Below, one piece after another: positions 6,198 to 63,560 of a stretch of 64,000 bases of DNA. Where the stretch lies: contig OZ024744.1 in assembly GCA_964016885.1 (NCBI GenBank), positions 66,464,001-66,528,000 on the forward strand, written 5' to 3'. Numbering within the stretch: position 1 is the stretch's first letter; every line of letters starts with the position of its first letter. The notes under the pieces were generated by a model. The model did not search any database. It had not been told where the DNA came from and worked only from the letters and a program-made list of their open reading frames with translations. Origin of the DNA: Eledone cirrhosa. Taxonomy: Eukaryota. Made by a program: the position numbers and the translations under genes.

Positions 6198-6235
<38 letters not shown>

Positions 6236-7185: not shown

Positions 7186-10100
7186 TCATCATCATCATTT
7201 TTGTTTAATGTCCATCTTCCACGCTAGCATGGGTTAGACGGGAATTGTCCCACTTGAGGCAAGGTTGGTCGGGTGACCGTGTCTCGCTCATATAGGACTA
7301 TCTGGCAGGTTTTCTACGGCTGGATGCCCTTCCTAACACCAACCACATTTACAGTGTGGAACTGGGAACTTTTTACTGTGTTACCTACACGGCCACATTG
7401 TGGACTGTGTTTTTTTTTGTCGTGACACCTACATGATCTCGATCTCATTATCTCATTTATTTGGACTGGATATTGTGGTACCAACTTTACAGAGAGAGGG
7501 TGGTGTTGGTGGGAGTGGGAGGATAGGGTAGGGGTAGTGGAGTGGAGTGTGTATTTGGTTAAGTGCTGCCTACTGAATGTAGGTTTCGCTTTGTACATAG
7601 GCAAGGCGGGTCTTCTGTATTACTGCGTAGCGCCAAAGATCTCGGTCCAGTGACATTGTCTTAGAGAGGTGCAAGTGTGTAAGGTTGGAATTTATCAAGC
7701 AGGGAAAAGCGGACGTAAAATGAAGATGATGATGATGATGATGACGTCCCAGGTTTTTCTGGGTCTACCTACTCTGTAACTACCATCAATTTTGATCGCC
7801 CTGCACTCTTTTATAAGGCTGTCGTCTTTCATGCGCATCACGTGACCATACCAACGTAGTCTTCTCTCAAGTAAACAGCATCTGATCCCTCTTATTCCTA
7901 ATTTCTTTACTTAGTTCATTTATGCTTTGCCGTTCATGTATATTACTATTACACACCCAACGGAGCATGCATGCTTCATTCCTTTCCAGTCTACACAGGT
8001 CCTCTGCACGTAATGCCCATGTCTCACTGCCATGTAGCATTGCTGTTCGTATACAGGCATCATACAATCTGCCTTTCATATTTAGAGAGAAACCTTTTGT
8101 GGCCAACAGCGGTATAAGCTCTCTGAACTTTTTCCATCCTGTTCTGACTCTAGCTACTGTACTTTCAGAACACCCTCCACCACTGCTGATTTCGTCACCC
8201 AGGTAACAGAAAGTGTCCACTATTTCTATAGAACCATCTGGGCAATAGAAGGAGCTAGTATCCTGTGGACACTTGCTACTTATTGCACCTGAGCATCGGC
8301 CATATATAAAGTCCATGTTCTTAGATAGTTTACCTGTGATCCCACTACATCTTTTATGTACTTTGCATTTGGGACATAAAATGGAATTTCTGCCTACTCC
8401 TTTCCTACACACTGAGCATGGCCATTTCCCAGAGGAGACCTGTGCCCTATTTTCCTTTCTACATACTAGAACTTTAATCTTAGACAAGTTAACTTTAACG
8501 CCTTTTGATTCTAGGCCATGCTTCCATGTTTGGAATTTCTTCTCTAGTTCAGCCATAGATTCAGCTATGAGAGTTAGATCATCTGCGTATAAGTGTTCCC
8601 ATGGGCAGCCAGTCTTGAACTCCTCTGTTATAGCCTGAAGGGCAATAATAAATAGGAGGGGGCTAAGGACATAGCCTTGATGAACACCAACTTTTACACT
8701 AAATTCTTCACAATATTCATTGTTAATTCTAACCTTACTGACTGTTTCTTTATACATAGCTTGTATAGCTCTCACAAGCCGTTCATCTGCACCTAGTTTT
8801 CTAAGAGCCCACCAGATAATGGAGCGGAGGACTCGGGTCTACAAAAGCTAAGTTGAGGGGTTTACTTTTAGCTAGGTACTTTTACCTGACACAAAACCAA
8901 ACTGCATTTCATCTAGATCAATTCACTCTCTGATTAGTTGCACTTTAACTCTTTCTGTGACCTTCATTACCTGGTCAACTAACTTAATGCCTCTATAGTT
9001 TCCCCTATCTAGAGCATCCCCTTTACCCTTGTAACAGTTAATGATGATGCTGCTAAACCATTCTGTATTACTTGGTTAACTATCCGGGTGACCATACTAT
9101 GCCCCACCATTCCAGATGCCTTCAACATCTCAGCAACTATCACCGAAGGCCCAGCTGCCTTGCCTGTCTTCATATCTTTGATTGCCTTACTTATTATACT
9201 ACCTTTAACTTGCACCGCTGGTCCCTCTATTGGATCGATTTGGGGCAGACTATCTTTTTCCCATTTATTCTCCTCATTTAATAATCTCTCGTAGTGACAC
9301 TTCCAGGCTATCTTCTTATCAGTATCAGTGAGGGCAAGTACACTGTTGTCATTACGGACACACTTCTCTCCGACAATATCACGGTTTTCCTTGACACATT
9401 GTCTAGCAATCCTGAACACCTCACGTAAAACATACTTTCTATCCTCTGCTTCCCTTTTTGCAAGGTACACTTGTCTCCTAGCTTCCCTCCTGGCCACTTG
9501 ATAGTGTTCTCTACTTCCCCCATCCCCCCATACTTTCCAAGCCTGTTTTTTGGCCTTGATTGTCTCCTCCACCTTACTGTTCTACCACCAAGTTACTCTC
9601 CTCCTGCCAATAGGTTTGCTCCAGCCACAGATTTCATCTGTCGCCTTCAGCAGGTTAACTTTCAAGAATTGCCACTGTTCCTCTATATTGCACGTCTCTA
9701 ATTGCTCTTCCTTATTGTCAAAGGCATCAAGTAATAAGCTTTTAAACTTGTCACTGGCTATGGGGTCCTTCAACTTCCATATTCTTCTCCTCAAGATAGG
9801 CCTCCTTAGTCATCGAGTACGTCTATTCCTGCCTATGAGGTCACTAACTATTAAGCTATGTTGGGAGGTGCATTCTTCATGGGGGAGGCATTTAGTGTTT
9901 ACAATAGACACTTTGTCACGTCTTCTAGTAAGGATATAATCTATCTGGCTGGCGTGTTCCCCTGATCTATAGGTGATCAAGTGGTTTTCTCGTTTTTTGA
10001 AGTTAGGTTATTAGCGTCACCGAATTCCAGGATTCTGAAGTCCTCCTCATTTCTATTTCCAACTCCATAGCCTCCATGGATTCCATCATAGCCATCACTA

Positions 10101-31782: not shown

Positions 31783-32925
31783 CGGAGGGCGGTGGATTGG
31801 CAGTATCGGGAGAGAGTCGGACACCATGCTTTGAAGCATAGAGTTACATCCCTTTATGATCTGAGTTCAAATCCTGCCGAGGTTAACTTTGCCTTTCATC
31901 CTTACGGGGTCGATAAAATAAAGTACCAGTAATGTACTGGGTAATTGCTGGCCTTGTGCCTAAAATAGAAACAATTATTTACATAGGTCGGACGCCATGC
32001 TTTCTAGTATAGTTACGTCTCTTTACATTCTGAGTTCAAATCCCGCCAAGGTTAACTTTGCCTTTCATCCTTACAGGATCGATAAAATAAAGTACCAATA
32101 ATGCACTGGGTAATTGCTGGCCTTGTGCCAAAAAGTAGAAACAATTATTTACATTGGCAGTATTGGTAAAGTGTCGGACAACATGCTGTGCAGCATAGAG
32201 TTATGGCCCTTTGCGTTCTGATTTCAAATACTGCCAAGGTTAGCTTTGCCTTTCATCCTTACAGGGTCAAAAAAATAAAGTACCAGTAATGCACAGGGGT
32301 CGATTTAATCGACTTCACCCTCCCCGTAAATTGTTGGCCTTGTGCCTGCCTGTATGAGAAATCATTATTTACTGAAGTTAATCTGAGTTCAAATCCCGCC
32401 GAGGTTAACTTTGCCTTTCATCCTTTTATCACGGGGTCGATAAAATAAAGTACCAGTAATGTACTGAATAATTGCTGGCCTTGTGCCTAAAGTAGAAACA
32501 ATTATTTACTTAAGTTAATTTAATCGACTCCCCCCCCCCCCTCTAGAATTGTTAGCCTTATGCCTAAATCAGAAACCATTATTTAATTTAATTATAAACT
32601 ACCTTAATTATTGGTTCTAACACAGGCACAAGTCCTGAGCATTTTTGGGGGGATAGTCAGAGGAAGTTTTATTATATCGGTCCCAGTACTGTATTGATCG
32701 ACCTTGAAAGGGTGAAAAGCAAAGCTTGGCCGCAGTGGGATTTGAACTACTCTAACAACACTGTTAATCCACCACCATTTTTTGGGGGGTTGATCAGAGG
32801 AAGTTGATTATATCAGTGCCAGTACTTGACCAGTACGTTATTGATCGACCTTGAAAGAATAAAAGGCAAAGGTTGACCGCAGTGGGATTTGAACTACTCT
32901 AACAACACTGTTAATCCACCACCTT
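31783..32925. mobile_element. Cluster of SINE family 2: ~4 tandem plus copies, then 2 diverged minus copies
   Basis: gcctttcatcct..gataaaataaagtacc recurs at ~31890, 32060, 32248 and 32413; reverse copies at ~32610-32925. Confidence 0.85.
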
Positions 32926-33620: not shown

Positions 33621-33659
<39 letters not shown>

Positions 33660-33860
33660 TATGTACACGTACATACATATATGTATACAGACGTACAGTA
33701 GTATGTATATATACATACATGCACACATATATATATATGTACGTATGGATTCACCGAACATTTATTATAATGCTCGGTGTGTTTGTAAACAAACATCCCG
33801 TATTAAGCCGTAGTGTCCAGCAACCATCGTTGCTCATTTGTTCAACACTGACAAAGGAAG

Positions 33861-33899
33861 GCTGTACTAGTTTCAAGCTTGTTAGCTATCGTCAGCAAC
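33861..33899 (-). ncRNA. Minimal type-I hammerhead ribozyme motif (GUA)
   Basis: GTTG-CTGACGA-t AGCT aaca AGCT t-GAAA-CT AG-TA-CAGC. Confidence 0.75.
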
Positions 33900-34390
33900 G
33901 TATACCTTCCTGCCAGATTGTTGAACGTATATACTTACCTTATGCATATTAGTGGCTGAGTAGCCCAATTTGCATATCGAGTGGGTTAATCGGCCGGGTG
34001 CACCGAAAGCGATAAACGGAAAAAATGAAACGAAATTTCATTTCCCACTCTTAGTACGGCTGTTAATTAAATATAAGTATGTACACGTACATACATATAT
34101 GTTTGGTGAATCCATACGTACATATATATATGTGTGTGCATGTATGTATATATATATACATACTACTGTACGTCTGTATACATATATGTATGTACGTGTA
34201 CATACTTATATTTAAGTAACAGCCGTACTAAGAGTGGGAAATGAAATTTTGTTTCATTTTTTCCGTTTATCGCTTTCGGTGCACCCGGCTGATTAACCCA
34301 CTCGATATGCAAATTGGGCTGCTCAGCCGTTAATATGCATAAGGAAAGTATATACTTTCAGACGTTCAATCATCTGGCAGGAAGAAATAC

Positions 34391-34429
34391 GTTGCTGACG
34401 ATAGCTAATAAGCTTGAAACTAGTACAGC
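34391..34429 (+). ncRNA. Minimal type-I hammerhead ribozyme motif (GUA)
   Basis: GTTG-CTGACGA-t AGCT aata AGCT t-GAAA-CT AG-TA-CAGC; stem I extends via ggaag/cttcc. Confidence 0.75.
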
Positions 34430-34688
34430 CTTCCTTTGTCAGTGTTGAACAAACGAGCAACGATGGTTGCTGGACACTACGGCTTAATACGGGATGTTTG
34501 TTTACAAACACATCGAGCATTATAATAAATGTTCGGTGAATCCATACATACATATATATATATGTGTGCATGTATATATATACATACTACTGTATGTCTG
34601 TATACATATATGTATGTACGTGTACATACTTATATTTAAGTAACAGCCGTACTAAGAGTGGGAAATGAAATTTTGTTTCATTTTTTCC

Positions 34689-34724
<36 letters not shown>

Positions 34725-35340: not shown

Positions 35341-35924
35341 AGATAGATCAATAGATAGAGAGATGGAGAGATAGAGAGATAGAATGATAGATAAATCATT
35401 AAAAAGACAGAGAGGAAGGAATAAAGCATTTAATGATTGACAAACAGACAGATAGATAAAGTAGAATGCAGTTATTACAGAGATGATGAATTATGCATTC
35501 TGTGACGTAGGAATGGCCATAAAATGTAAAATCCTAGAAAGGAGTTTATCAACATATTTTATGAGTTAAAAGATTTAAAGATTAAAGACTATATGAACCT
35601 AAGTGAAGTCAATATTTTAGATATAACTTTGGCTTAAAGAGCGCAGCATACAGTATAGTGGTAGTATTCTTTCTTCATTCAATTAACTTTCAAAACTTGA
35701 TTCGGTGGAATGATACGTAATGGCCGCCCCCCACCCCACACACATCCCCGGCGGACAGAATGGAGGAGGCGTTCCGCCGGAGAACGACAAGGGAGACACG
35801 CCGGAAAAGCCACTCCAACTCGCGGAGCTCACACCTGCGGCTGGCCAGTTAGGTACTGGTTAATACGGCCTTTCTATAATTCAAATGAGAAACTGCAGCA
35901 TAAAAGTATAAATTCCAAATAATT

Positions 35925-37148
35925 ATTTCTAATTTAGGCACAAGGCCAGCAATAACCCAGTACATTACTGGTACTTTATTTTATCGACCCCCGTAGGGAT
36001 GAAAGGCAAAGTTAACCTCGGCGGGATTTGAAATCAGAACGCAAAGGGCCATAACTCTATGCTGCACAACATGTTGTCCGACACTTTGCCAATACTGCCA
36101 ATGTAAATAATTGTTTCTACTTTAGGCACAAGGCCAGCAATTACCCAGTGCATTACTGGTACAACGACGCTACTTTTTTCCTAAAATATGTCCCAAAAAT
36201 CTACCATGCGTCCTGGAGACCGAAGGTTGTTTATTATTTTTTTTCAAATTTTTGGATGTCAAAATTAGGGTGTGTCCTCGAGGGTGAAGCGTCTTCGGTG
36301 CCAGGAAATACGGTACTTATTTACATAAACATATGCATATCCCATGTATCTTTGAATGTTGAATATTTTTAGCTGCTGCTTAAAAGGATTGATACCCTAT
36401 GCCTCTAAGAATCTGGTTGAGCGCACTAAGCACACTGAGCCAAACGACCACTGACAACAGCTACCATCTAAATAACAGCTTGGAAGTAAACAATATTTTG
36501 AAAATAAACTATTGGTTAGAATGTGGTTAGATTGTCTCATGAAAGAATTGCTGAACAGATTATACGGGCAAAGTCAACCAGCAGGAGATCCACATAATCA
36601 ACAAGATGGTTGAATAACATTCATGAGCTTGGATTGTCTTGCTTAGGGATCCAGCTGGATCAATGGAAGACTGTTGCTTCTGACTGAACTTCATGGAATC
36701 TAAAACTGGGGACTCTGTTTCCATGACCCCCCCCCCCCCATCCGAAATAAGTGGGTGAATAATAATTGTTTCTACTTTAGGCACAAGGTCAGCAATTATC
36801 CAGTGCATTACTGGTACTTTATTTTATCGACCCCGTAAGGATGAAAGGCAAAGTCAACCTCGGAGGGATTTGAACTCAGATCGTAAAGGGACGTAATTAT
36901 GCTGGAAAGCATGGCGTCCGACCCTCTACTGATACTGCCAATGGTTTCTTATATAGGCATAAGGCCAGTAATTTTTTGGGGGGCAGGGCAAAGTCGATTA
37001 AATCAACACTAGTACATTACTGGGGCTTTATTTTATCAACCCCCATAAGGATGAAAGACAAAGCTAACCTCGGCAGGATTTGAACTCAGATCATAAAGGG
37101 CCGTAACTCTATGTTGCAAAGCATGGCATCCAACCCTCTACTGATACT
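35925..37148 (-). mobile_element. Several SINE2 copies with a pogo/Tigger-like end and an RTE 3' fragment between them
   Basis: SINE2 at ~35925-36160 and 36763-37148; gcgtctt..ggaaatacggta at ~36290-36315; RTE end at ~36555-36730. Confidence 0.6.
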
Positions 37149-37930
37149 GTGAATAATAATAACAATAATATAAATATACATGTATGTATTTGTAATTCTA
37201 ATTGCAGCACGTTTGTATAAATTCCAACTAACCTCAAATAATTGTAAAAAAAAAAATGACTTAGTTACATAAATATACACATATCCCATGTATACTCAAA
37301 TGTTGAATGTTTTATCTGTGTTACTCATTATAACAAGCATACATTAAATAACAGTGACCTTAATGATAGGATACATTGCATGTAGAACAAGACTAATATT
37401 AATAAATGGAAAAATAGAAAATGAAATGGTATAACCCTCCGTATAATTTGGGATGTAAAACTTTTGTATAATTATTTTCCTGTACAAATAGAGATCATAA
37501 GATCTTCCATAATAAAATAAAGTCAAGGTGAGTCATAGCTAGGACAAAACCTTTGCAGCTTCTATAGTCAATATAGATAGAAGAAACCATTCTAACACAA
37601 ATATGCAAAATCTTTGTGTAATGGTAACAACCCTAAGCTCTGGCCTCTCAAAGCATAAGTGTATTGAATTAAGGCTTCTTTTGCAAATTGCAGCAACAAA
37701 ACAATTTATAGGGGTCACTAAAAATCCTTGAAAAGATATTCTGTCAGTATATGTATGCATTCAGACACTCAGATAGACACTTTTTACTACTTTACTATCA
37801 AAATATAACTGGGTTCTAAAGGAGACTGATAATAACAATTATAAGATCAATTAGACCATTATAGAACATGTAAATCTTTACAGTGTTGATTCTAGAACGT
37901 GGAATCTTTGCTTCTCAGTAGATTAAATCA

Positions 37931-39379: not shown

Positions 39380-39418
39380 TCTTAACGTTTCGGACACCAG
39401 TCCTTCATCAGAAATAAG
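39380..39418 (-). ncRNA. Minimal hammerhead motif (GUU), Penelope pLTR type
   Basis: ttt-CTGATGA-aGGAC tggt GTCC-GAAA-CG-TT-aag; loopless palindromic stem III (AACGTT). Confidence 0.65.
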
Positions 39419-40461: not shown

Positions 40462-40557
40462 TTAAATTTAAATCAATTTACAAAGAATCAAATATCTATA
40501 AATTGGTACCATAAGAAGATATTTGAAAACATTCTATATATATATATATATAAAAGA

Positions 40558-40669
40558 AGAGTCAGGACCTCGACAGCTGAGCTCTGGCCGTTTCGACAGC
40601 TAGATCTGAACTATAGTTCGGATCTAGCTTTCAAAAGGGCTGGAGCTCAGCTGTCGGGGTCCTGACTCT
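40558..40669 (+). repeat. 112-nt loopless GC-rich imperfect palindrome
   Basis: 56-bp arms centred on gaacta|tagttc, with 4 G-U wobbles and 3 mismatches on the plus strand. Confidence 0.85.
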
Positions 40670-40924
40670 TTTCCTATAAACCACCTCTATTAACCCTAAG
40701 TATTTCATATTAACCCTAAGTATTGAGTACTCTAGTGTGTTATGGTCCACCTGGTATCTTACCACACCCTCTTTTTTGTTGTATATATATATATTTGTCA
40801 ATTTTTTCTTCATACTTATAATTTACATTTAGCTCTGATTAATTGATTATTTATTTAGTTTATTTCTCTAGGCTATAAAGAAAAGTTAGGTTAAATTTTG
40901 TCCGTCTGTTCTTCAAACTTATAA

Positions 40925-41957: not shown

Positions 41958-44900
41958 TAAAACCAAGACTACAATGACCAGCAAAGGTAGGTAAAACCAA
42001 GACTACAATGACTAGCAAAGGTGGGTAAAACTAAGACTACAATCACTAGCAAAGGTGGGTAAAACCAAGACTACAATGACTAGCAAAGGTGGGTAAAACC
42101 AAGACTACAATGACTAGCAAAGGTGGGTAAAACTAAGACTACAATGACTAGCAAAGGTGAGTAAAACCAAGACTACAATGACCAGCAAGGTGGGTAAAAC
42201 CAAGACTACAATGACTAGCAAATATGGGTAAAACCAAGACTACAATGACCAACAAAGGTAGGTAAAACCAAGACTACAATGACCAGCAAAGGTGGGTAAA
42301 ACCAAGACTACAATGACCAGCAGGTGGGTAAAACCAAGACTACAATGACCAGCAAAGGTGGATAAAACCAAGACTACAATGACCAGCAAAGGTAGGTAAA
42401 ACCAAGACTACAATGACTAGCAAATGTGGGTAAAACCAAGACTACAATGACCAGCAAAAGTAGGTAAAACCAAGACTACAATGACTAGCAAAGGTGGGTA
42501 AAACTAAGACTACAATGACCAGCAAAGGTGGATAAAACCAAGACTACAATGACCAGCAAAGGTGGGCAAAACCAAGACTACAATGACCAGCAAAGTTAGG
42601 TAAAACCAAGACTACAATGACCAGCAAAGTTAGGTAAAACCAAGACTACAATGACGAGCAAAGGTGGGTAAAACCAAGACTACAATGACTTGCAAAGGTG
42701 GGTAAAACCAAGACTACAATGACCAACAAAGGTAGGTAAAACCAAGACTACAATGACTAGCAAAGGTGAGTAAAACCAAGACTACAATGACCAGCAAAGG
42801 TGGGTAAAACCAAGACTACAATGACCAGCAAAGGTGGGTAAAACCAAGACTACAATGACCAGCAAAGGTGGGTAAAACCAAGACTACAATGACTAGCAAA
42901 GGTGGGTAAAACTAAGACTACAATGACTAGCAAAGGTGGGTAAAACCAATACTACAATGACTAGCAAAGGTGGGTAAAACTAAGACTACAATCACTAGCA
43001 AAGGTGGGTAAAACCAAGACTACAATGACTAGCAAAGGTGAGTAAAACCAAGACTACAATGACCAGCAAAGGTGGGTAAAACCAAGACTACAATGACCAG
43101 CAAAGGTGGGTAAAACCAAGACTACAATGACTAGCAAAGGTGGGTAAAACTAAGACTACAATGACTAGCAAAGGTGGGTAAAACCAAGACTACAATGACT
43201 AGCAAAGGTGGGTAAAACTAAGACTACAATGACCAGCAAAGGTGGGTAAAACCAAGACTACAATCACTAGCAAAGGTGGGTAAAACCAAGACTACAATGA
43301 CCAACAAAAGTAGGTAAAACCAAGACTACAATGACTAGCAAAGGTGGGTAAAACTAAGACTACAATGACCAGCAAAGGTGGATAAAACCAAGACTACAAT
43401 GACCATCAAAGGTGGGTAAAACCAAGACTACAATGACTAGAAAATGTGGGTAAAACCAAGACTACAATGACCAGCAAAGGTGGGTAAAACTAAGACTATG
43501 ATGACCAGCAAAGGTAGGTAAAACCAAGACTACAATGACTAGCAAATGTTGGTAAAACCAAGACTACAATGACCAGCAAAGGTGGGTAAAACCAAGACTA
43601 CAATGACCAGCAGAGGTAGGTAAAAGCAAGACTACAATGACTAGCAAAGGTAGGTAAAACTAAGACTACAGTGACCAGCAAAGGTGGGTAAAACCAAGAC
43701 TACAATGACTAGCAAAGGTGGGCAAAACCAAGACTACAATGACCAGCAAAGTTAGGTAAAACCAAGACTACAATGATCAGCAAAGTTAGGTAAAACCAAG
43801 ACTACAATGACCAGCAAAGGTGGGTAAAACCAAGACTACAATGACTAGCAAAGGTGGGTAAAACCAAGACTACAATGACCAACAAAGGTAGGTAAAACCA
43901 AGACTACAATGACTAGCAAAGGTGAGTAAAACCAAGACTACAATGACCAGCAAAGGTGGGTAAAACCAAGACTACAATGACCAGCAAAGGTGGGTAAAAC
44001 CAAGACTACAATGACCAGCAAAGGTGGGTAAAACCAAGACTACAATGACCAGCAAAGGTAGGTAAAACCAAGACTACAATGATGAGCAAATGTGGGTAAA
44101 ACCAAGACTACAATGACCAGCAAAGGTGGGTAAAACCAAGACTACAATGACCAGCAAAGGTAGGTAAAACCAAGACTACAATGACTAGCAAAGGTGGGTA
44201 AAACTAAGACTACAATGACCAGCAAAGGTAGGTAAAACCAAGACTACAATGACCAGCAAAGGTGAGTAAAACTAAGACTACAATGACCAGCAAAGGTGGA
44301 TAAAACCAAGACTACAATGACCAGCAAAGGTGGGTAAAACCAAGACTACAATGACCAGCAAAGGTAGGTAAAACCAAGACTACAATGACTAGCAAAGGTG
44401 GGTAAAACTAAGACTACAATGACCAGCAAAGGTGGATAAAACCAAGACTACAATGACCAGCAAAGGTGGGTAAAACCAAGACTACAATGACTAGCAAATG
44501 TGGGTAAAACCAAGACTACAATGACCAGCAAATTGGGTAAAACCAAGACTACAATGACCAGCAAAGGTAGGTAAAACCAAGACTACAATGACTAGCAAAG
44601 GTGGGTAAAACCAAGACTACAATGACCAGCAAAGGTGGGTAAAACCAAGACTACAATGACTAGCAAAGGTGGGTAAAATCAAGACTACAATGACCAGCAA
44701 AGGTGGGTAAAACCAAGAGTACAATGACTAACAAATGTGGGTAAAACCAAGACTACAATGACCAACAAAGGTAGGTAAAATCAAGACTACAATGACCAGC
44801 AAAGGTGGGTAAAACCAAGACTACAATGACTAGCAAATGTGGGTAAAACCAAGACTACAATCACTAGCAAAGGTGGGTAAAACCAAGACTACAATGACTA

Positions 44901-45004
44901 ACAAAGGTGAGTAAAACTAAGACTACAATGACTAGCAAAGGTGGGTAAAACCAAGACTACAATGACTAACAAAGGTGGGTAAAACTAAGACTACAATGAC
45001 AAGC
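41958..45004. repeat. 34-bp minisatellite, ~90 copies
   Basis: Unit aaaaccaagactacaatgaccagcaaaggtgggt with recurring point variants and no spacers. Confidence 0.97.
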
Positions 45005-45629
45005 GAAGTTGGGGCGAATGGACAAAGTTGTTGGGATGTCGGATAGACTGCTTTGCAGTATTTATTCAAATCCGGTCGAATTTATCTTTCATCCATTTAA
45101 GGTTGATAAAAACGTAAGTACCAGTCTAGTGCTCAGAGGTGGTGGGATGGGGGAGGGGGTACAGGGGCACCCTGACCTTTCCAATAAATATATTTTTCTC
45201 CCAAAACTACCATAAAACATATCTATTTATATATACGACTATTTATGTACATGTTATGTTTATCACATATCAAAGTTTTTTTGTTTTTTTTAATATCTTG
45301 GTTGATATTTGTTAATAAGAGCTAAAGTAACCACTACAACTAAAGTGACCAAATTTACACCACCACCCCCAATTCAGAAATGCTTCCACCCCACCTCACC
45401 CTTGGTACTGGGGTCAATTCTTATTCTTCTACTATATCATCTTTCTCACCCTCAACCCATCTCTGTAGAAGAAATATCTGCCATGTTCAGACCTGGAGAA
45501 GAGATGAGAATCATCCTGATTTTAAAATGTTCAAGAAACACCGTATGTCGATATAACGTCCCCTACAACTCCATCTGGAGTTACGGGTCAAAAGATACAT
45601 ACAAATCAGGAGCAAGATAATTGAAACAA

Positions 45630-46114: not shown

Positions 46115-48330
46115 TCATCATCATTTTACGTCTGCTTTTCCATGCTTGCATGGTGGGATGGGTCTTATTCAGCACAGCATCTCTCCACTTGTCACAATCC
46201 TTCGTCATCTCCACCGTGAGCTTCAGTGATCTGAGGTCTGTTCTCACCACCTCCGCCCATGTTTTTCGTGGTCTACCTCTACCACGTCTTCCTTCAACTG
46301 CCATTTCCTGGCACGTCTTCACCCATCGGTCATCCTCCATGTGCATCACATGTCCATACCCTCTCAGTCTCCTCTCTCACACACTACATTCTATCCCTCT
46401 CAGACACAGTTTCTCTCTCAACACATTCATGCTGGGTTGTTCACGCACATTGACATTGCACATCCAACAGAGCATGCTTACCTCATTTCTCTCCAGCCGT
46501 TGCATATCCTCTGCAGTTGCTGCCCATGTCTCACTACCATGCAGCATCCCGCTCCTCACACAGGCATATAACCGGCCTTTCGTATGCAGGGAGAAACCCT
46601 TCTTCGTCAGCAGAGGAAGCAGCTCCCTAAACTTCTTCCAACCCGTCCTTATTCTAGATACTATGGCCTCGAACCCCCCCCCCTCCTATGCTAATCTGAT
46701 CTCCTAGGTACCGGAAGCTATCCACCACTTCTATAGCACCCCCCTGCATTTGAAAAATGTGTCTATCAATGCGACTTCTACTGTCTAATTTCCCTGTACA
46801 TCTACAGCATACGTATTTCTCCCTACCTGTTAGTTTGCCTGCTATCCCACTACATCTCTTGTTTACCCAGGATCTGGATTGTGTGCATTTTATAGAGTTT
46901 ATGCCAGTTCCTTTTCTGCATATCAAACATGGCCATTTCCCTGACGGAATCAGGGTTTTGTCCTCTTTTTTACTCATCAACACTTTTGTCTTAGCTAGGT
47001 TCACTCTCAGTCCTCTTGCTTCCAACTGCTGTTTCCATAACCAGAATTTATTCTCTAGCTCCTCTACTGATTCTGCTATAAGAACCAGATCATCAGCATA
47101 GAGAAGTTCCCATGGACAGCCAGTCTTAAACTCCTCTGTTATGGCTTGGAGGACTATAATGAACAATAGACTTTTGTCTCTAATGGCCCTATCTACTGTG
47201 CTGTTCCACCACCAGGTCACTCTCCGTCTGTTTCATCAATAGCCTGCAGTAAGTTGTCACGTAAGAAATTCCAGTTATTATCTATGTTATACGTCTCTAA
47301 ATCGTCTTCTTTTTCGTCATACACATCTTGAAGGGATTTCCTAAATTTGTATTTTAGTGAAAGCTCTTTTAGCTTCCAGACCTTTCTTCTCCACACCTTC
47401 CTGTATGTCTCATTCCATCTCTTGCTTACTGAGATATCACTAATGACTAACCTATGCTGTGGGGTACATTCTTCCCCAGGGTATGCCTTGGTATTTGACA
47501 CCATCTGCCTAACTAGTAAGAAGTTAATCTGGCTTATGTGCTCGGCTGATTTGTAGGTTATTAGGTGATTGGTAGGTTTCTGGACTTAGTGTTGCAAATA
47601 GTCAGTGTACTTGCATCACGAAATTCAAGAAGTCTCACTCCTTCTTCATTTCTTGAGCCATAACCGTGCCCACATGTACCCCAGTGTAACCATCCTGGAG
47701 CTGTCCAACATGACCATTGAAGTCCCCTGCTAGCATAACAATGTCTCCGTCCTCTGTCATTGCGGCTGTTTGTAAAAGTTGCTCGTAAAAGCAGTTTTTC
47801 TCTTCTTTGACTAGGCCTGCTTGGGGAGCATAGGCAGAGATGATTGTCAGTAGTCTCCTGCCAACAACTAATCTAAGCTTAATTATTCGATTATTAACTC
47901 GAACTACCTCTATTGTCTTATTGACCCATTTCTCAGCCAGGAAAATGCCTACTCCCCCTAACCCATCATCCTTACCTACCCAGAAATGCTTATAGCTAAG
48001 ACTAGTCTCGCAGAGGCACCTCTCCATTTCACCTCTTGCACGCAGCACACATCCAACATGCCTTCTCTCCAGCATCTCCGCTATTTCAGCAGATCTACCT
48101 GTGAGAGTGCCAACATTAAGTGTTGCAACTCTGAGATGCGACGTCTTCATATTTTTGTTATTCCTATCTATTTGTTGGTGTGCTGATAAGCGTTTTGGCA
48201 TTGATACACTGGTTGGATGCCCTTCCTAAAACCAGTGCCACTTTACAGCATGGACTGGGTGCTTTTATTCGTGCCACCAGCACTAGAGAGGATGTCTTAC
48301 TGGACTCATGGGCCCTCTCTACCCTTGCAT
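46115..48330 (-). mobile_element. RTE LINE family A with 5' end and a large internal deletion
   Basis: EN (VATLNVGTL, ISAYAPQ, LAGDFNGHVG). TWWWNSTVDRAIRDK is fused directly to SLLFIIVLQAITEEFKTGCPWELLYADD at ~47170, ~1 kb shorter than the copy at 61393-63560. Confidence 0.92.
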
Positions 48331-48743: not shown

Positions 48744-48775
<32 letters not shown>

Positions 48776-48813
48776 GAAATATAAGAATCAAAGAACTGTT
48801 CAAAACATTATTG

Positions 48814-48860
48814 TGCTTACAGCTGTTTCCTCCAAACCGAGGTTTGGATTCTTCGGAGCA
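48814..48860 (-). ncRNA. Hammerhead motif, CCGAAGA core variant (GUA)
   Basis: Mirror of 49181-49227. Confidence 0.62.
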
Positions 48861-49180
48861 ATTTATTAATGCATGGACAGTTATATGACCTCCTTTTCAG
48901 CCGAGAGACATACCAATACATATTCAAACATTGATACATATTCAAACATTGTGGGTCAACATTCATTACAAAATTTAGAGTGGCAGTACACACTTCGAGA
49001 TTACATTTATATTAATAGGTACCTATTAATATAAATGTAATCTCGAAGTGTGTACTGCCACTCTAAATTTTGTAATGAATGTTGACCCACAATGTTTGAA
49101 TATGTATCAATGTTTGAATATGTATTGGTATGTCTCTCGGCTGAAAAGGAGGTCATATAACTGTCCATGCATTAATAAAT

Positions 49181-49227
49181 TGCTCCGAAGAATCCAAACC
49201 TCGGTTTGGAGGAAACAGCTGTAAGCA
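49181..49227 (+). ncRNA. Hammerhead motif, CCGAAGA core variant (GUA)
   Basis: TGCT-CCGAAGA-a TCCAAACC tc GGTTTGGA g-GAAA-CAG CTG-TA-AGCA. Confidence 0.62.
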
Positions 49228-49437
49228 CAATAATGTTTTGAACAGTTCTTTGATTCTTATATTTCATATATTTCATATAACTGCTCTGTAAATCATCTGA
49301 TGTTTTTACATTGAGCTACTTAACTTACTGGTAATAAGGTAGTAATACATTACTGCCTACCACTATTTAGGGTGTGTGTAAAATACTTACAACTGCTTAA
49401 GGTTTTGTGTTTACATAACCATAAATAGTATAACTAA

Positions 49438-49489
<52 letters not shown>

Positions 49490-49955: not shown

Positions 49956-51017
49956 CACAGGTTCTCAACCCATTTAGGCCAAACGCCCCCTTTTGTCCCT
50001 CGAAATCACGAAACGCCCCCCCCCCCTTTTTTTTTCCCATTTTTCAATATACTACTGATTTTTATATCAGTAGATTACTAAAAAATTGATTAACAATATT
50101 CCAAAGATGTGTGTATTATCTGATTATGTGTTGTATGTGGTCCTAGATGTGTGTATTATCTGATTATGTGTTGTATGTGGTCCTAGATGTGTGTATTATC
50201 TGATTATGTGTTGTATGTGGTCCTAGATGTGTGTATTATCTGATTATGTGTTGTATGTGGTCCTAGATGTGTGTATTATCTGATTATGTGTTGTATGTGG
50301 TCCTAGATGTGTGTATTATCTGATTATGTGTTGTATGTGGTCCTAGATGTGTGTATTATCTGATTATGTGTTGTATGTGGTCCTAGATGTGTGTATTATC
50401 TGATTATGTGTTGTATGTGGTCCTAGATGTGTGTATTATCTGATTATGTGTTGTATGTGGTCCTAGATGTGTGTATTATCTGATTATGTGTTGTATGTGG
50501 TCCTAGATGTGTGTATTATCTGATTATGTGTTGTATGTGGTCCTAGATGTGTGTATTATCTGATTATGTGTTGTATGTGGTCCTAGATGTGTGTGCTACT
50601 CGCTATTATTCCCTATTATTTATACAATAGGGAATAAAATAGATCTACATAGTGTTAACTCGTTGCGGTTGAGTCAATAATTTCAGACATGAAATACATT
50701 GTTATCGGTGAAGGAAAGATAAGATTCTAATTAGCTGCGCTCAAAGTGTCCTTGACCCAGTTGACTGCGGGCTTTTTCATTTTTAGGATCTCAATTACCG
50801 GTTAACGTCTCAATTACCAGACATGCCTGCACACCTGCTCACAGCTGTGGTCAGACTATAGTTATGCTGTCTGCAAGCTCAGTCAAATGCATTCACACTG
50901 GCTGTCTCAAAGACATACAAATATGGCTTATAAAACTTACCAAAATAAAGACCCTTTCAGCCCCCCTACCCCAGCTCCCCCCCCCCGGTGCATATGCCCC
51001 CCCTTTGAGAACCTTTG
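49956..51017. mobile_element. hAT-type non-autonomous element with perfect 8-bp TSD
   Basis: TSD TCCTAGAA at 49948-49955 and 51018-51025; TIRs cacaggttctcaa / ttgagaacctttg. Confidence 0.88.
50105..50594. repeat. Perfect 40-bp minisatellite, 12.25 copies
   Basis: Unit agatgtgtgtattatctgattatgtgttgtatgtggtcct, invariant. Confidence 0.97.
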
Positions 51018-53689: not shown

Positions 53690-55541
53690 TTTCTTTATTT
53701 GCCACAAGGGCACACAAGAAATGAGACATTATAGGATGTGATGACAGCGGTAGATAGATAGATTTCTTTATTTGCCACAAGGGCACAGAAGAAAAGGGGA
53801 CAATACAAAGACATGCCGAGGATTTTACATACAGTCATGTAAAAAATATAAAACAAACAATTATAACAATCGAAATCCCCAATAGGGGGGAAGTGCCACA
53901 AATGGGTTCTTTAATACCCCGTCGATAGAACAACCCTCAACTTCAGGAGCATGTTGTGCAAGTGCTCCCTTCTTCCTTTTGCTATCTTCTTTAACCTACA
54001 GGCTTATAAACAGAGAAGGCCCAATCACTTGGGCCATTTTTGCCACATTCACCCACCTTTCAGTAAATTTACTGGGGTGCAGTGCCTCTCTCTCCACCGT
54101 GATTCTCCTTCTAAAGTGACACTTAACGAAGGGAATCAATTGTTGTCTGGAGAGAAAGGCATCTGTCCTCAGTCCTCTCAATCTTGTCCACCATATAACC
54201 TCTTTCACCATAGCCACTGTACAGAGGAAAACCACCTCTCTTTCTTTTTTGAAAGAGGCTGGCGGTTTGATCCTTACTATGGACTTGGCAGTCAACTGGA
54301 TTTGTTCCATACGCGACAGCAGATGTTCTGCATAGTTCCATAGGTCGGTTACGCCCGGGCAGGACGGTTTCAATGTCCTGCACGCATCTTAGACACATCC
54401 TTTTCGAAGGATCCCTGCCGGGGCGTCCGTGCCTGTAGATCTTGTCACAAACTGGTAGAGCTCTTCGGTAGCACTGCCAGGCCAGGTGCCCATCATTTTC
54501 GGTCTTTTCTTGACCCAGGACTGCAGCTCCATCAGTGAGACGAGCTGTGGGAAAGCCTGTCTCACAAACGGTTCCCACACCGGTTGGGGGTCGGTGAGGA
54601 ATGCCTGGAGATGCCGCAGCCTCAGCGCATGTTTGCGCATCATCAGCCACGGCATTCCCAGCCCTCCGTTGGAAGGGTGCTGACAGCAGATGGATCTCCT
54701 CACCAGCGGAGCCTGCTTCTTCCACAGAAACCGGAAGAGCATGTGTTCCATCTTTCAAGGCAGTTTGCACTCTGCCCACTTCTGGGTGAGTGCAAACACC
54801 TTGGCTGTGACCTCGTTCCAGTTTTTTTCCACCTGGAGGTCTGAACCGAACCAGACCCCGAGCAATTTCACCGGTCCGTCCGTCCAGCGTCCGATGACGC
54901 TTTCGGACATCATCGGTTTGCCTCTCCAGGTACCGAGTTGCAAACCGACAGACTTGTCCGGGTTTAGTTTTGCTCCTGTCAGCATTTCGTATTCTTTCAG
55001 TAAGTTGCCGATCACCCCTATTTCCGAGGTGCTCGACACCATTACTGTCACGTCGTCGGCATAAGCCGATGCCACTTTGCGCAGTCCCGGTTCTAGGGGG
55101 ATGCCCTGCAACAGCTCCAATTTCCGCAGTAGTGGATTTAGAGTCAATACATTCAGAATGGAGGAGTAAGGGCATCCCTGTCGAATGGAACACGTGATTA
55201 CAAATGGCTCCGATAGGTAGCCGTTCACCTTGACCCTCGAGCAGATGCTGGTGTGCATCGCCTCGATCCAGCCTCTGAACACGGGACCGAAACCGGCCGC
55301 CTTGAGAACCGCTTCCAAGTATCGATGGTCGACCCTTTCGAATGCCTTAGACTGATCCAAATTGATCAGAGCCCCACCGAAGCCGGGTTTACTACCCACC
55401 CTCTCTATGATGTATCGCATGAGGTGGAGGTTGTCGAGTATGGACCTGGTCGGGATTGCACACGTTTGCGCTTTCCCTACCAGGTTCTCGATGACAAGCG
55501 CCAACCTCGTCACTAGCACCTTGGCCAAAATCTTTAACTCT
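53690..55541 (-). mobile_element. Tx1/L1-clade LINE, 5'-truncated, internally deleted RT pseudogene
   Basis: KILAKVL..RL, LDQSKAFERVDHRYL, IRQGCPYS, AYADDV, LLGVWFG and HPSNGGLGMP are L1/Tx1 RT signatures. Both ends abut (GATA)n; the 3' terminus is duplicated at 53690 and 53762. Confidence 0.9.
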
Positions 55542-56166
55542 GATAGATAGATAGATAGATAGATAGACATATATATATATATATATAATGAGAGAGAGAG
55601 ATAAGTAGAACAAAGTCATTGTAATTCGGTGGATATATGTTCGATAATGATTGAAGAAAATATGGAAGAAAATTATTGTAATTGATTTAAATTAATGTAA
55701 AATGGTCAGAATGACAAGAGGATAAAAGTCAAGGAAAATTGAGAATTCAAGTATCTTTACATAGAATGTAATGGAATTCTCATATTAATTATGTTTTACT
55801 ATAAACCCCATTATTTTTTATGGGTACTATACAAGTAATTTTAGTAATTCCCTCGGGTTCTTCATTACTTCATTAAAATACAGTGTATTTTATCAATAAT
55901 ATGGTAATGTAAAAGTTTTTTTAAGTTTTTACAGATACCATTCGCATAATTTTAAAACAATATCTTTGAAACATTTTTCAAGTCAGACATGACTGTGTAA
56001 TTATGTTACCACATGGTTGAAGGTTTTCGTTTAATGAGTAGGACATTCAGCATTTGTTTTCTACTACAGCCTAATGTCAAACAAATTATGCCTTGAGAGT
56101 GAAATTCAGAAGGCTGAAACAGTGCAGAAGTCCATCACGTTTATGTATGTGTGCATTATATGTATG

Positions 56167-58475: not shown

Positions 58476-58605
58476 ATATATATATATATATATTTATATA
58501 AATGAAGTAATTCCGTCGGAAAGGTCCAGGAAAAAAGAGTGCTCTATGCAGGTTACAGAGCGTATTAGTTATGTAATAAACAACAAAACAACATAAGATA
58601 ATTAT

Positions 58606-58664
58606 TTCACTTACCAGTGGTTTCTTGAAAGCAAACAAAATTTGCTTTCAGTCATCAGAATGAA
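58606..58664 (-). ncRNA. Type-I hammerhead ribozyme motif (GUA)
   Basis: Mirror of 58712-58770. Confidence 0.8.
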
Positions 58665-58711
58665 AAAATCCTGGTGTATTTATTGACAGTCAATAAATAC
58701 ACCAGGATTTT

Positions 58712-58770
58712 TTCATTCTGATGACTGAAAGCAAATTTTGTTTGCTTTCAAGAAACCACTGGTAAGTGAA
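58712..58770 (+). ncRNA. Type-I hammerhead ribozyme motif (GUA)
   Basis: TTCATT-CTGATGA-c TGAAAGCAAA ttttg TTTGCTTTCA a-GAAA-CCA c TGG-TA-AGTGAA. Confidence 0.8.
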
Positions 58771-58818
58771 ATAATTATCTTATGTTGTTTTGTTGTTTAT
58801 TACATAACTATATATATA

Positions 58819-61392: not shown

Positions 61393-63560
61393 ATGACAAC
61401 TGAATTTCTTACGTGACAACTTACTGAAGGCTACTGATGGAACTTGTGGCTGTAGCAGAGCTCCAACCAGACAGAGAGTGACCTGGTGGTGGAACAGCAC
61501 AGTAGATAAGGCCATTAGAGACAAAAGACTAGCATCGAAGGCTTGGAAAAAGGGTGGGAGTAGAGAAGGATATACAGCTGCTAAGAGAGATGCTAGACGT
61601 CAGGTGTACTTAGCCTGCAGGGAGGCTGAGAGTAGGAGGTTTGCCAATGTTCTGCGACGGGAAGATCAGAGGCGTGCGGTGTTCCACATTGCAAGGCAGT
61701 GTGTCAATGCAAATCAGGATGTTGTTGGAGATAAATGTGTCCAGAATGATGCCGGTGTACTTAGTGTCACGAATGATCAGAAAAAGGGAGGCCTGGAAAT
61801 GTCATTATGAGAGACTGATGAAAGTAGAGAACGAATGGGAGAGAGAGAAATTACCCTCAGTAGATCCGACAGAGGGACCAACTATTGAGATTGATGAATA
61901 TAGGGTCCAAGATGCGATTAAGGAAATGAAAAATGGTAAGGCTGCTGGACCGTCGGGGATAGTTGCTGAGATGCAGAAGGCATCAGGGGACGTAGGCACT
62001 AAACAGGTTGCACACATCATCAATCAGGCTATATATGGTGGTGTCATACCCAAAGACTGGTGCAGCAGTATTCTCATAAATTGCTACAAAGGGGATGCTC
62101 TGGAGAGGAGCAATTATAGGGATATAAAACTGATGTATCAGGTTATGAATGTGGCAGAAAGGATATTAGCACAACTAATTAGAGAAAGGATCAAACTAGA
62201 TGAGATGCAGTTTGGTTTTGTGCCTGGGAAAAGTACAACAGATGCCCTCTTCTTGGTGAGACAAGAGAGGTTCTTAGAAAAGAATAAGCCACTATACTTA
62301 GCCTTTGTTGACCTAGAGAAGGCCTTTGATAGGGTACCCTGATCTGTCATCTGGTGGTCCCTAAGGAAACTAGGTGTTGAGGAATGGCTTGTGAGGATAG
62401 TACAAACATTGTACAGAGGTGCTGTCAGTAAGGTCAGGGTAGGAATGGAGTTTAGTGAGGAATTCCAGATACAAGTAGGAGTACATCAAGGTTCGGTCCT
62501 CAGCCCTCTCTTGTTCATTATAGTCCACCAAGCCATAACAGAGGAGTTTAAGACTGGCTGTCCATGGGAACTTCTCTATGCTGATGATCTGGTTCTTATA
62601 GCAGAATCAGTAGAGGAGCTAGAGAATAAATTCTGGCTATGGAAACAGCAGTTGGAAGCCAGAGGACAGAGTGAACCTAGCTAAGACAAAAGTGTTGATG
62701 AGTAGAAAAGAGGACAAAACTCTGATTCCATCAGCGAAATGGCCATGTTCGATATGCAGAAAAGGAACTGGCATAAATTCTATAAAATGCACACAATGCA
62801 GATCCTGGGAACACAAGAGATGTAGTGGGATAGCAGGCAAACTAACAGGTAGGGAGAAATACGTATGCTGTAGATGTGCAGGGAAATTAGACAGTAGAAG
62901 TCGCATTGATAGACACATTTTTCAAATGCAGGCGGGTGCTATAGAAGTGGTGGATAGCTTCCGGTACCTAGGAGATCAGATTAGCATGGAGGGGGGTGTT
63001 CCGAGGCCATAGTATCTTGAATAAGGATGGCTTGGAAGAAGTTTAGGGAGCTGCTTCCTCTGCTGACGAGAAGGGTTTCTCCCTGCGTACGAAAGGCCAG
63101 TTATGATGCCTGTGTGAGGAGCGCGACGCTGCATGGTAGTGAGACTTGGGCAGCAACTGCAGAGGATATCCGACGGTTGGAGAGAAATGAGGCAAGCATG
63201 CTCTGTTGGATGTGCAATGTCAATGAACGACCCAGCATGGATGTGTTGAGAGAGAAACTGTGTCTGAGAGGGATAGAATGTAGTGTGCGAGAGAGGAGAC
63301 TGAGGTGGTATGGACATGTGATGCGCTTGGAGGATGACTGATGGGGGAAGAAGTGCCAGGAAATGCCAGTTGAAGGAAGACGTGGTAGAGATAGACCACG
63401 AAAAACATGGGCGGAGGTGGTGTGAACAGACCTCAGATCACTGAAGCTCACGGTGGAGATGACGAAGGACCGTGACAAGTGGAGAGATGTTGTGCTGAAT
63501 AAGACCCGTCCCACCCTTGGAAGCAAGGAAAAGAGGACGTAAAATGATGATGATGATGAT
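61393..63560 (+). mobile_element. RTE LINE family A, 5'-truncated, frameshifted RT
   Basis: MQFGFVPGKSTTDA, AFVDLEKAFDRVP, VGVHQGSVLSPLLF, LLYADDLV, FRYLG, RRLRWYGHV; (GAT)n tail. Confidence 0.93.

Follow-up and report, generated by a model that had tools for sequence, protein, structure and literature searches.

A hammerhead-bearing inverted pair between (TA)n tracts: probably an ORF-less, retrozyme-like element mobilised by a PLE

Anatomy of the locus and of its unit

The window, i.e., the whole stretch of 64 kb that was analysed, is animal DNA with many (TA)n tracts, LINE fragments and SINE-like repeats; in general look it would suit an octopod. An earlier note had placed an inverted pair at 33656..34692, and its position and make-up were borne out. 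Two arms lie head-to-head between (TA)17 and (TA)15:

33624-33657, no strand: (TA)17 target microsatellite on the left, 100% matches in the tandem repeat
33658-34102, minus strand (34102->33658): left arm, 445 nt, unit of 416 nt, 1.07 units, no tail, the haplotype shorter by 8 nt
33859-33901, minus strand: type I hammerhead motif of the left arm by our own descriptor, core 33895-33865, predicted cleavage 3' of 33865
34099-34102, no strand: exact microhomology of 4 nt, the head-to-head (5'-5') junction, where the arms overlap
34099-34694, plus strand: right arm, 596 nt including the bases in common with the flank, unit of 424 nt, 1.40 units, no ORF
34099-34270, plus strand: first pass of the terminal redundancy of the right arm (a miniature pLTR), repeated at 34523-34694
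34389-34431, plus strand: type I hammerhead motif of the right arm by our own descriptor, core 34395-34401 and 34416-34419, predicted cleavage after 34425
34535-34633, plus strand: TA/CA-rich low-complexity segment inside the unit, with further copies at 34111-34209 and 33658-33755
34634-34694, plus strand: one-sided "tail" of ~60 nt with a predicted 12-bp hairpin, between two 3' end points
34692-34722, no strand: (TA)15 target microsatellite on the right, tandem repeat

The unit length of the right arm was taken from the repeat spacing 34220/34644. Both arms are longer than one unit, and the measured lengths agree with the ~1.06 and ~1.4 units claimed before. The proposed hammerhead monomer of ~420 nt holds as well: the units have no ORF and close on themselves. 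"One hammerhead per unit" is correct in so far as each arm has one; the arms, however, are on opposite strands, and neither strand carries two.

The 3' ends of both arms point outward into (TA)n, with which they have 5 nt (left) and 3 nt (right) in common. The head-to-head junction is asymmetric, with 77 nt between the arms and no perfect palindrome. The left arm maps entirely inside the span of the right one (34180-34633), from which it differs by 16 substitutions, one 8-nt indel (34354-34361) and one 2-nt indel in a microsatellite. Within the right arm, the two passes (34099-34270 versus 34523-34694) are distinguished by four substitutions, three at CpG and one in a microsatellite, and by a slippage of 6 nt; their last 76 nt are identical.

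In the doubled unit the longest stop-free sense stretch is 51 codons, and Pfam returned no match for four frames from the arm region. The ORF-less closure across the low-complexity segment is present in two different haplotypes. The GC content is 0.37. Folded as circles, the two arm units reach z values of -7.5 and -6.7 (0/60 shuffles each), and of -4.9 and -5.5 without the low-complexity part; the antisense strand folds well, too (z -4.1). Predicted pairs are broken by 12 of 40 listed family variants, as against 18.0 expected (P = 0.016), while the enrichment of variants at unpaired sites (17/39) is not significant (P = 0.10). A short non-coding unit, low GC and high self-pairing are the traits of non-LTR retrozymes. 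An autonomous PLE has an ORF for RT and GIY-YIG between its pLTRs; here the unit has none, and the locus is not an autonomous PLE.

Rfam detected no hammerhead in the window, neither at the gathering score nor at E<=10, and the hammerhead call therefore rests on our own descriptor for type I. None of 20,000 dinucleotide shuffles of the unit matched it; 30 shuffles of the window gave no match either, versus six core matches in the real window. The right-arm motif has a helix II of 4 bp with U.U at its base, a palindromic helix III of 6 nt (34419-34424) and a helix I of 4 bp. The left-arm motif is built in the same way (helix II 4 bp with the U.U base, 6-nt palindromic helix III, helix I 4 bp). 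This is the shape of the "canonical metazoan" type I hammerhead, which needs dimers for activity (PMC4209133); the U.U base of helix II is also found in HHR_Amex2 of the axolotl (PMC7229834). The 108 weak Rfam matches at E<=10, mostly to hairpin models of miRNAs and sRNAs, were dismissed as chance: all are below gathering, none is a hammerhead, and nearly all lie on inverted or low-complexity parts.

Both window copies have a C at 34430, which breaks one pair of helix I. In a related sample 94-99% of the reads have G at this position, and helix I would then reach 6 bp. In the monomer fold, helix II forms (p 0.88-0.97), helix I barely (pairing probability 0.05-0.11). Since helix I does not form there, the hammerheads of both window copies are predicted to be weak. 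Across 34393-34427, the variants among those listed (40 of 74) fall only on the free core position N7 (34399) and on loop 2 (34409), a pattern that would fit a conserved ribozyme; the absence of variants from the 12 fixed core positions, among the same 40 of 74, is not significant by itself (P = 0.19).

The family in sequencing reads

One unit (34230-34653) was compared with four of 23 sequencing runs, X1, X21, X4 and X5, leaving out the repeat stretch 34535-34653, in which the unit-to-unit joints and the 3' end of the left arm lie. In X1, 7,576 contigs match the unit; in X21, 35,907 of 12.47 million RAD reads do so (0.29%). X4 and X5, which have other organism codes, yielded 12 and 10 low-depth contigs. 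Among the listed runs with the unit none is recorded as RNA, which has no bearing on whether the family is expressed. From the counts in X1 and X21 it follows that the variants of the family number in the thousands; its copies likely number in the tens of thousands, a rough estimate, as RAD sampling is biased. The summed contig depth (0.5-2.1 million) was set aside as a measure of copy number. Pattern scans found nothing in metagenome contigs and nothing in viral contigs.

The 3' end of the right arm is recurrent, because 33 X1 contigs pass into (AT)n at 34270, which corresponds to the right-arm end 34694. This is the distal end of the one-sided extension; its proximal end lies inside the stretch skipped in the read comparison. 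Strand inversions account for 11 of the 15 joints listed. They occur at different places, and two were found in X1 as well as in X21; it is, therefore, a trait of the family to form inverted pairs whose 5' joints vary. Of the circular permutation claimed for the arms, the variable 5' joints thus stand, but the permutation is not free, as the right-arm 3' end recurs. The reads are continuous over 34230-34534, and among the loose ends listed (17 of 446) only (AT)n and the sequence of a diverged subfamily are major. Read depth is also unbroken over 34270/34271, the place at which a pLTR tail would give way to an ORF. The earlier note had named fixed ends joined to a PLE ORF as the finding that would speak against a retrozyme; these two arms do not display them.

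The diverged subfamily keeps the hammerhead region and departs from the unit at 34453 (11,047 X21 reads); another departure is at 34478. In the reads, variants at 34392 and 34428 would together turn the U.G of helix I into G.U. Pile-ups of X21 read ends at 34245, 34312 and 34315 are on AATT sites and were read as RAD restriction cuts, the enzyme being deduced, and not as RNA ends.

The differences between the arms recur in the reads. For at least 10 of the 13 arm substitutions in the read-covered part the letter of the left arm was found. At no fewer than five substitution sites, four of them non-CpG, both letters are common (13-75%). The 8-nt deletion is present in 2,744 of 15,638 X21 reads, and 19 X1 contigs link the 8-nt indel to the left-arm letter at 34345. 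Two letters are common to both passes of the right arm and absent from the left arm (34216/34640 and 34250/34674). The arm differences are, thus, variants at the level of the family, and the arms likely came from two templates, which supports the previous claim of different template molecules. Since genuine haplotypes of the family distinguish the arms, a fold-back artefact of the reads was ruled out. Different as they are at the common variant sites, the arms agree in two letters of low frequency in organism A (0.2-6%), 34273 C and 34430 C. These could reflect a common source or a difference of species or sub-lineage.

Mode of insertion and rival explanations

The locus is probably an ORF-less, likely non-autonomous retrozyme-like element with a predicted type I hammerhead that was mobilised in trans by a PLE into (AT)n. 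PLE insertions comprise partial tandems, an adjacent inverted 5'-truncated copy and an optional tail of 30-40 nt at one end; a (TA)n bias is seen in the Naiad and Neptune clades, and ORF-less PLE derivatives exist (PMC8557442). The head-to-head arrangement is the commonest inverted form, junctions show microhomology, and self-priming has been proposed for PLE palindromes (PMC3846280). A purified Poseidon PLE, for which a dimer is predicted, nicks both strands of AT-rich DNA and extends them. In vitro, two internal start sites bound its tail, its template is mainly unprocessed RNA, and hammerhead cleavage is dispensable (PMC11167929).

Of these insertion features, the partial tandem with its inverted, 5'-truncated head-to-head copy is present here, and so is the (TA)n target, seen in the (TA)17 and (TA)15 flanks and in the (AT)n loose ends of the reads. 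Insertion by reverse transcription into (AT)n, as formerly suggested, is thereby supported. The insertions of Penelope/Poseidon, Neptune and Naiad are alike in the pLTR-forming partial tandem and in the adjacent truncated copy (PMC8557442, PMC3846280, PMC11167929). With endonuclease-bearing PLEs the element further has in common the microhomology junction, the (TA)n bias (Naiad, Neptune), a hammerhead upstream of the start sites of reverse transcription and, perhaps, the optional tail at one end. Unlike them, it has no ORF for RT/GIY-YIG. Its tail is ~60 nt long, as opposed to the published 30-40 nt (PMC8557442), and both its 3' ends have 3-5 nt in common with the (TA)n target, whereas the PLE studied in vitro started without homology (PMC11167929). 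In 192 filtered frames of the window Pfam found no GIY-YIG; the five RVT_1 matches are more than 11 kb away from the locus and LINE-like in look. Since Naiads are without canonical hammerheads, the partner PLE is more likely of the Neptune or Poseidon type.

The following sequence of events may be envisaged. An RNA longer than the unit, be it an uncleaved tandem transcript or a circle, would originate from a source elsewhere in the genome and be bound by a PLE protein. The GIY-YIG domain of the latter would nick both (TA)n strands, and each nick would serve as primer for reverse transcription from one of two internal start sites. Counted from the predicted cut site, these would lie 210 and 269 nt in the 3' direction, with ~60 nt between them. 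Two different RNA molecules likely would serve as templates. Both copies would run across the hammerhead site, end at a length of 1.07 and 1.40 units, respectively, and be joined head-to-head via the 4-nt microhomology. A transcript reading through the whole locus would fold into one long hairpin. As each strand has a single hammerhead, the locus itself cannot release a monomer or circle and is likely a dead end.

Two further groups of known elements invite comparison. Non-LTR retrozymes (PMC7229834; 10.64898/2026.07.22.740005) are alike in many respects: a non-coding unit of a few hundred nt with GC below 50%, a type I hammerhead with a weak palindromic helix III, a self-paired fold, high copy number, indel variants of the monomer and, as proposed, mobilisation by PLEs. 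They differ in being tandems with at least two hammerheads, whereas the arms described here, of 1.07 and 1.40 units, form a dispersed inverted pair in which each strand has a single hammerhead. The (AT)n target and the one-sided tail are likewise unlike retrozymes. The word "inverted" does not occur in the main text of PMC7229834. More recently, animal retrozymes have been described as non-autonomous PLE derivatives, in one continuum with the PLEs, the active ones being defined by two consecutive hammerhead units (10.64898/2026.07.22.740005). The present locus has a single one on each strand; it falls outside this definition and would there count as a monomer-type derivative. The non-autonomous Chlamys elements (MRC1, Chlamydomonas) are also ORF-less PLE derivatives with pLTRs and form multicopy head-to-tail insertions at microsatellites. 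They reside, however, in a green alga, use (CA)n or (C)n targets and mostly lack a canonical hammerhead; their autonomous partner is known by 3' similarity, while none is identified for the element in the window (PMC8557442).

That we are dealing with a true non-LTR retrozyme, whose tandem arrays yield abundant circular RNA of ~420 nt around which the arms were reverse-transcribed, is possible but doubtful. The closed ORF-less unit falls within the reported 150-450 bp (PMC7229834), has 37% GC and is strongly self-paired. The family hammerhead, with 34430 G, is canonical metazoan (helix I 6 bp, helix II 4 bp, palindromic helix III; PMC4209133), and its cut site is crossed by both arms. Most of what separates the two right-arm passes is CpG decay and slippage, as if one template had been read twice: in unique sequence there are 0/76 differences between them (P about 0.04 at the arm-to-arm rate). 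A circular template has, moreover, been proposed in PMC4209133 and PMC7229834. An uncleaved multimeric transcript, however, explains the DNA equally well, since DNA cannot separate a circle from a homogeneous tandem that stayed uncleaved. There are no two hammerheads on the same strand in the window, unprocessed RNA was the main template in vitro, with cleavage dispensable (PMC11167929), and one of nine retrozyme dimers was cleaved in vitro (10.64898/2026.07.22.740005). A bolder version, which we regard as unlikely, is that the family is propagated from self-cleaved and re-ligated circles of ~420 nt and that a single insertion captures two of them, one per nicked (TA)n strand, by a dimeric PLE enzyme with two fixed starts 60 nt apart. 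Differing haplotypes would find a simple account in two separate insertions, one copy entering (TA)n and a second one, reversed, arriving later at the TA-rich 5' edge of the first. This agrees with the high abundance of the family, its targeting of (AT)n and a junction set in TA-rich surroundings; also, more rare letters are on record for the right arm (34290, 34385, 34386, 34513) than for the left one. Yet no (TA)n remnant is left between the arms, head-to-head arms with a one-sided tail are the common form of single PLE insertions (PMC3846280), the same layout recurs in other elements of the window and in many read joints, and the asymmetry in CpG loss is small (about 4 versus 2). Such a succession therefore appears improbable.

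Self-priming would have copied the left arm from the cDNA of the right one by fold-back, with one arm later overwritten by gene conversion. This idea has been put forward for PLE palindromes (PMC3846280) and agrees with a left arm that lies wholly inside the right-arm span, with the two letters rare in organism A that both arms carry, and with window palindromes (58566-58810 and 48763-49279) that are >99% identical. It needs, however, a conversion tract of ~300 nt that supplies five common variant sites and the haplotype of the 8-nt indel, and it meets an asymmetric junction. The discordant arms, together with right-arm passes that share alleles, favour two templates rather than fold-back at this locus, where we consider the latter very improbable. 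Quite unlikely, finally, is that the arms are truncated pLTR ends of an autonomous PLE, that most copies are attached to an ORF, and that the ORF-less closure is a local accident. Hammerhead-bearing PLE ends of high copy number, single or as opposite-strand pairs 100-700 bp apart, are common (PMC4209133); an ORF attached to other copies could fall within 34535-34653, outside the read coverage, and the diverged subfamily does leave the alignment at 34453 in 11,047 X21 reads. Against this, two haplotypes both close the unit on itself across 34535-34653, and the reads run on through 34230-34534 with (AT)n and the diverged subfamily as the only major loose ends among the 17 of 446 listed.

The locus alone is not surprising, because its class, its hammerhead type and its insertion layout have all been described. 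In the literature on octopus and cephalopod hammerheads and on octopus Penelope, supplements and repeat libraries aside, no such family is described. The available text of the repeat paper on Octopus vulgaris contains none of the words hammerhead, retrozyme and ribozyme; it reports recently active Penelope-like families (PMC13282606). In a squid genome 235 Rfam hammerheads were counted (PMC6962438). The value of the locus lies in its haplotype-discordant arms and in the size of the family, which make number and topology of the templates testable. How PLEs are templated is debated: circles (PMC4209133), self-priming (PMC3846280) and unprocessed RNA with two-strand priming in vitro (PMC11167929) compete, and circles have been proposed for PLEs and retrozymes but not demonstrated as templates in PMC4209133 and PMC7229834. 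On twin priming in PLEs the literature listings contained nothing relevant. A short, ORF-less and very abundant family with distinguishable haplotypes is a handy test set for such models. If two circles were indeed captured per insertion, each young inverted pair would record both topology and number of its templates, and the circular-template and two-template models of PLEs would become testable from one genome.

Other elements in the window

Inverted pairs that lie at (TA)n and are longer on one side also occur at 58500-58810, 26771-27362 and 24138-24415; the layout is less clear at 48775-49279 and 40549-40678. That other families in the window have the same layout points to a shared machinery active in this genome.

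The element at 58500-58810 belongs to a second hammerhead family. It is a palindrome of 245 nt (99.6%) between (TA)n tracts, with a one-sided tail of 66 nt and a type I motif in both arms (58718 on the plus and 58658 on the minus strand; helix I 7, helix II 11, helix III 3 bp). A solo copy at 13418-13597 is 88% alike, has its motif at 13448 on the plus strand and terminates at (CA)n(TA)n. In a family diverged by 12%, arms so nearly identical would fit fold-back or a single template. This palindrome and the one at 48763-49279, both with 99% identical arms, fit fold-back rather than two templates.

The pair at 26771-27362 is older (80%) and lies between (AT)n tracts; its tail of ~60 nt is 70% related to the 58500 family, and it contains hammerhead-like core words at 26867 (minus) and 27203 (plus) that remain below the descriptor. 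Further palindromes adjoin (TA)n at 24138-24415 (92%), 48775-49440 (99%) and 40549-40678 (85%), the first two being longer on one side by about 83 and 160 nt; the descriptor detected no hammerhead in these three. Tails of ~60-68 nt with predicted hairpins are found at 13531-13598, 27300-27362, 34634-34694 and 58499-58566, as compared with the published 30-40 nt.

A lone type I motif is located at 15130-15180 on the plus strand (core 15136), about 135 nt upstream of (TA)n at 15308. Core words with a good helix II at 39411 (minus), 60769 (minus), 5417 (plus) and 59552 (plus) failed the descriptor for helix I/III; they are possible minimal motifs of the PLE type.

A SINE-like repeat of ~170-190 nt flanks the locus on both strands (31796-32515, 35917-36180 and 36761-37162), in part as partial tandems. 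Broken LINE-like reverse transcriptase frames (RVT_1) lie at 7870-8838, 46657-47232, 54758-55615 and 61614-62681, and related frames at 6199, 25456 and 62623 gave weak PHD-finger matches. Further repeats are a 34-bp satellite at 41958-45013 (90 copies), a perfect 40-bp array at 50105-50594 (12 copies) and 4.3 kb of degenerate (TA)n at 19482-23779.
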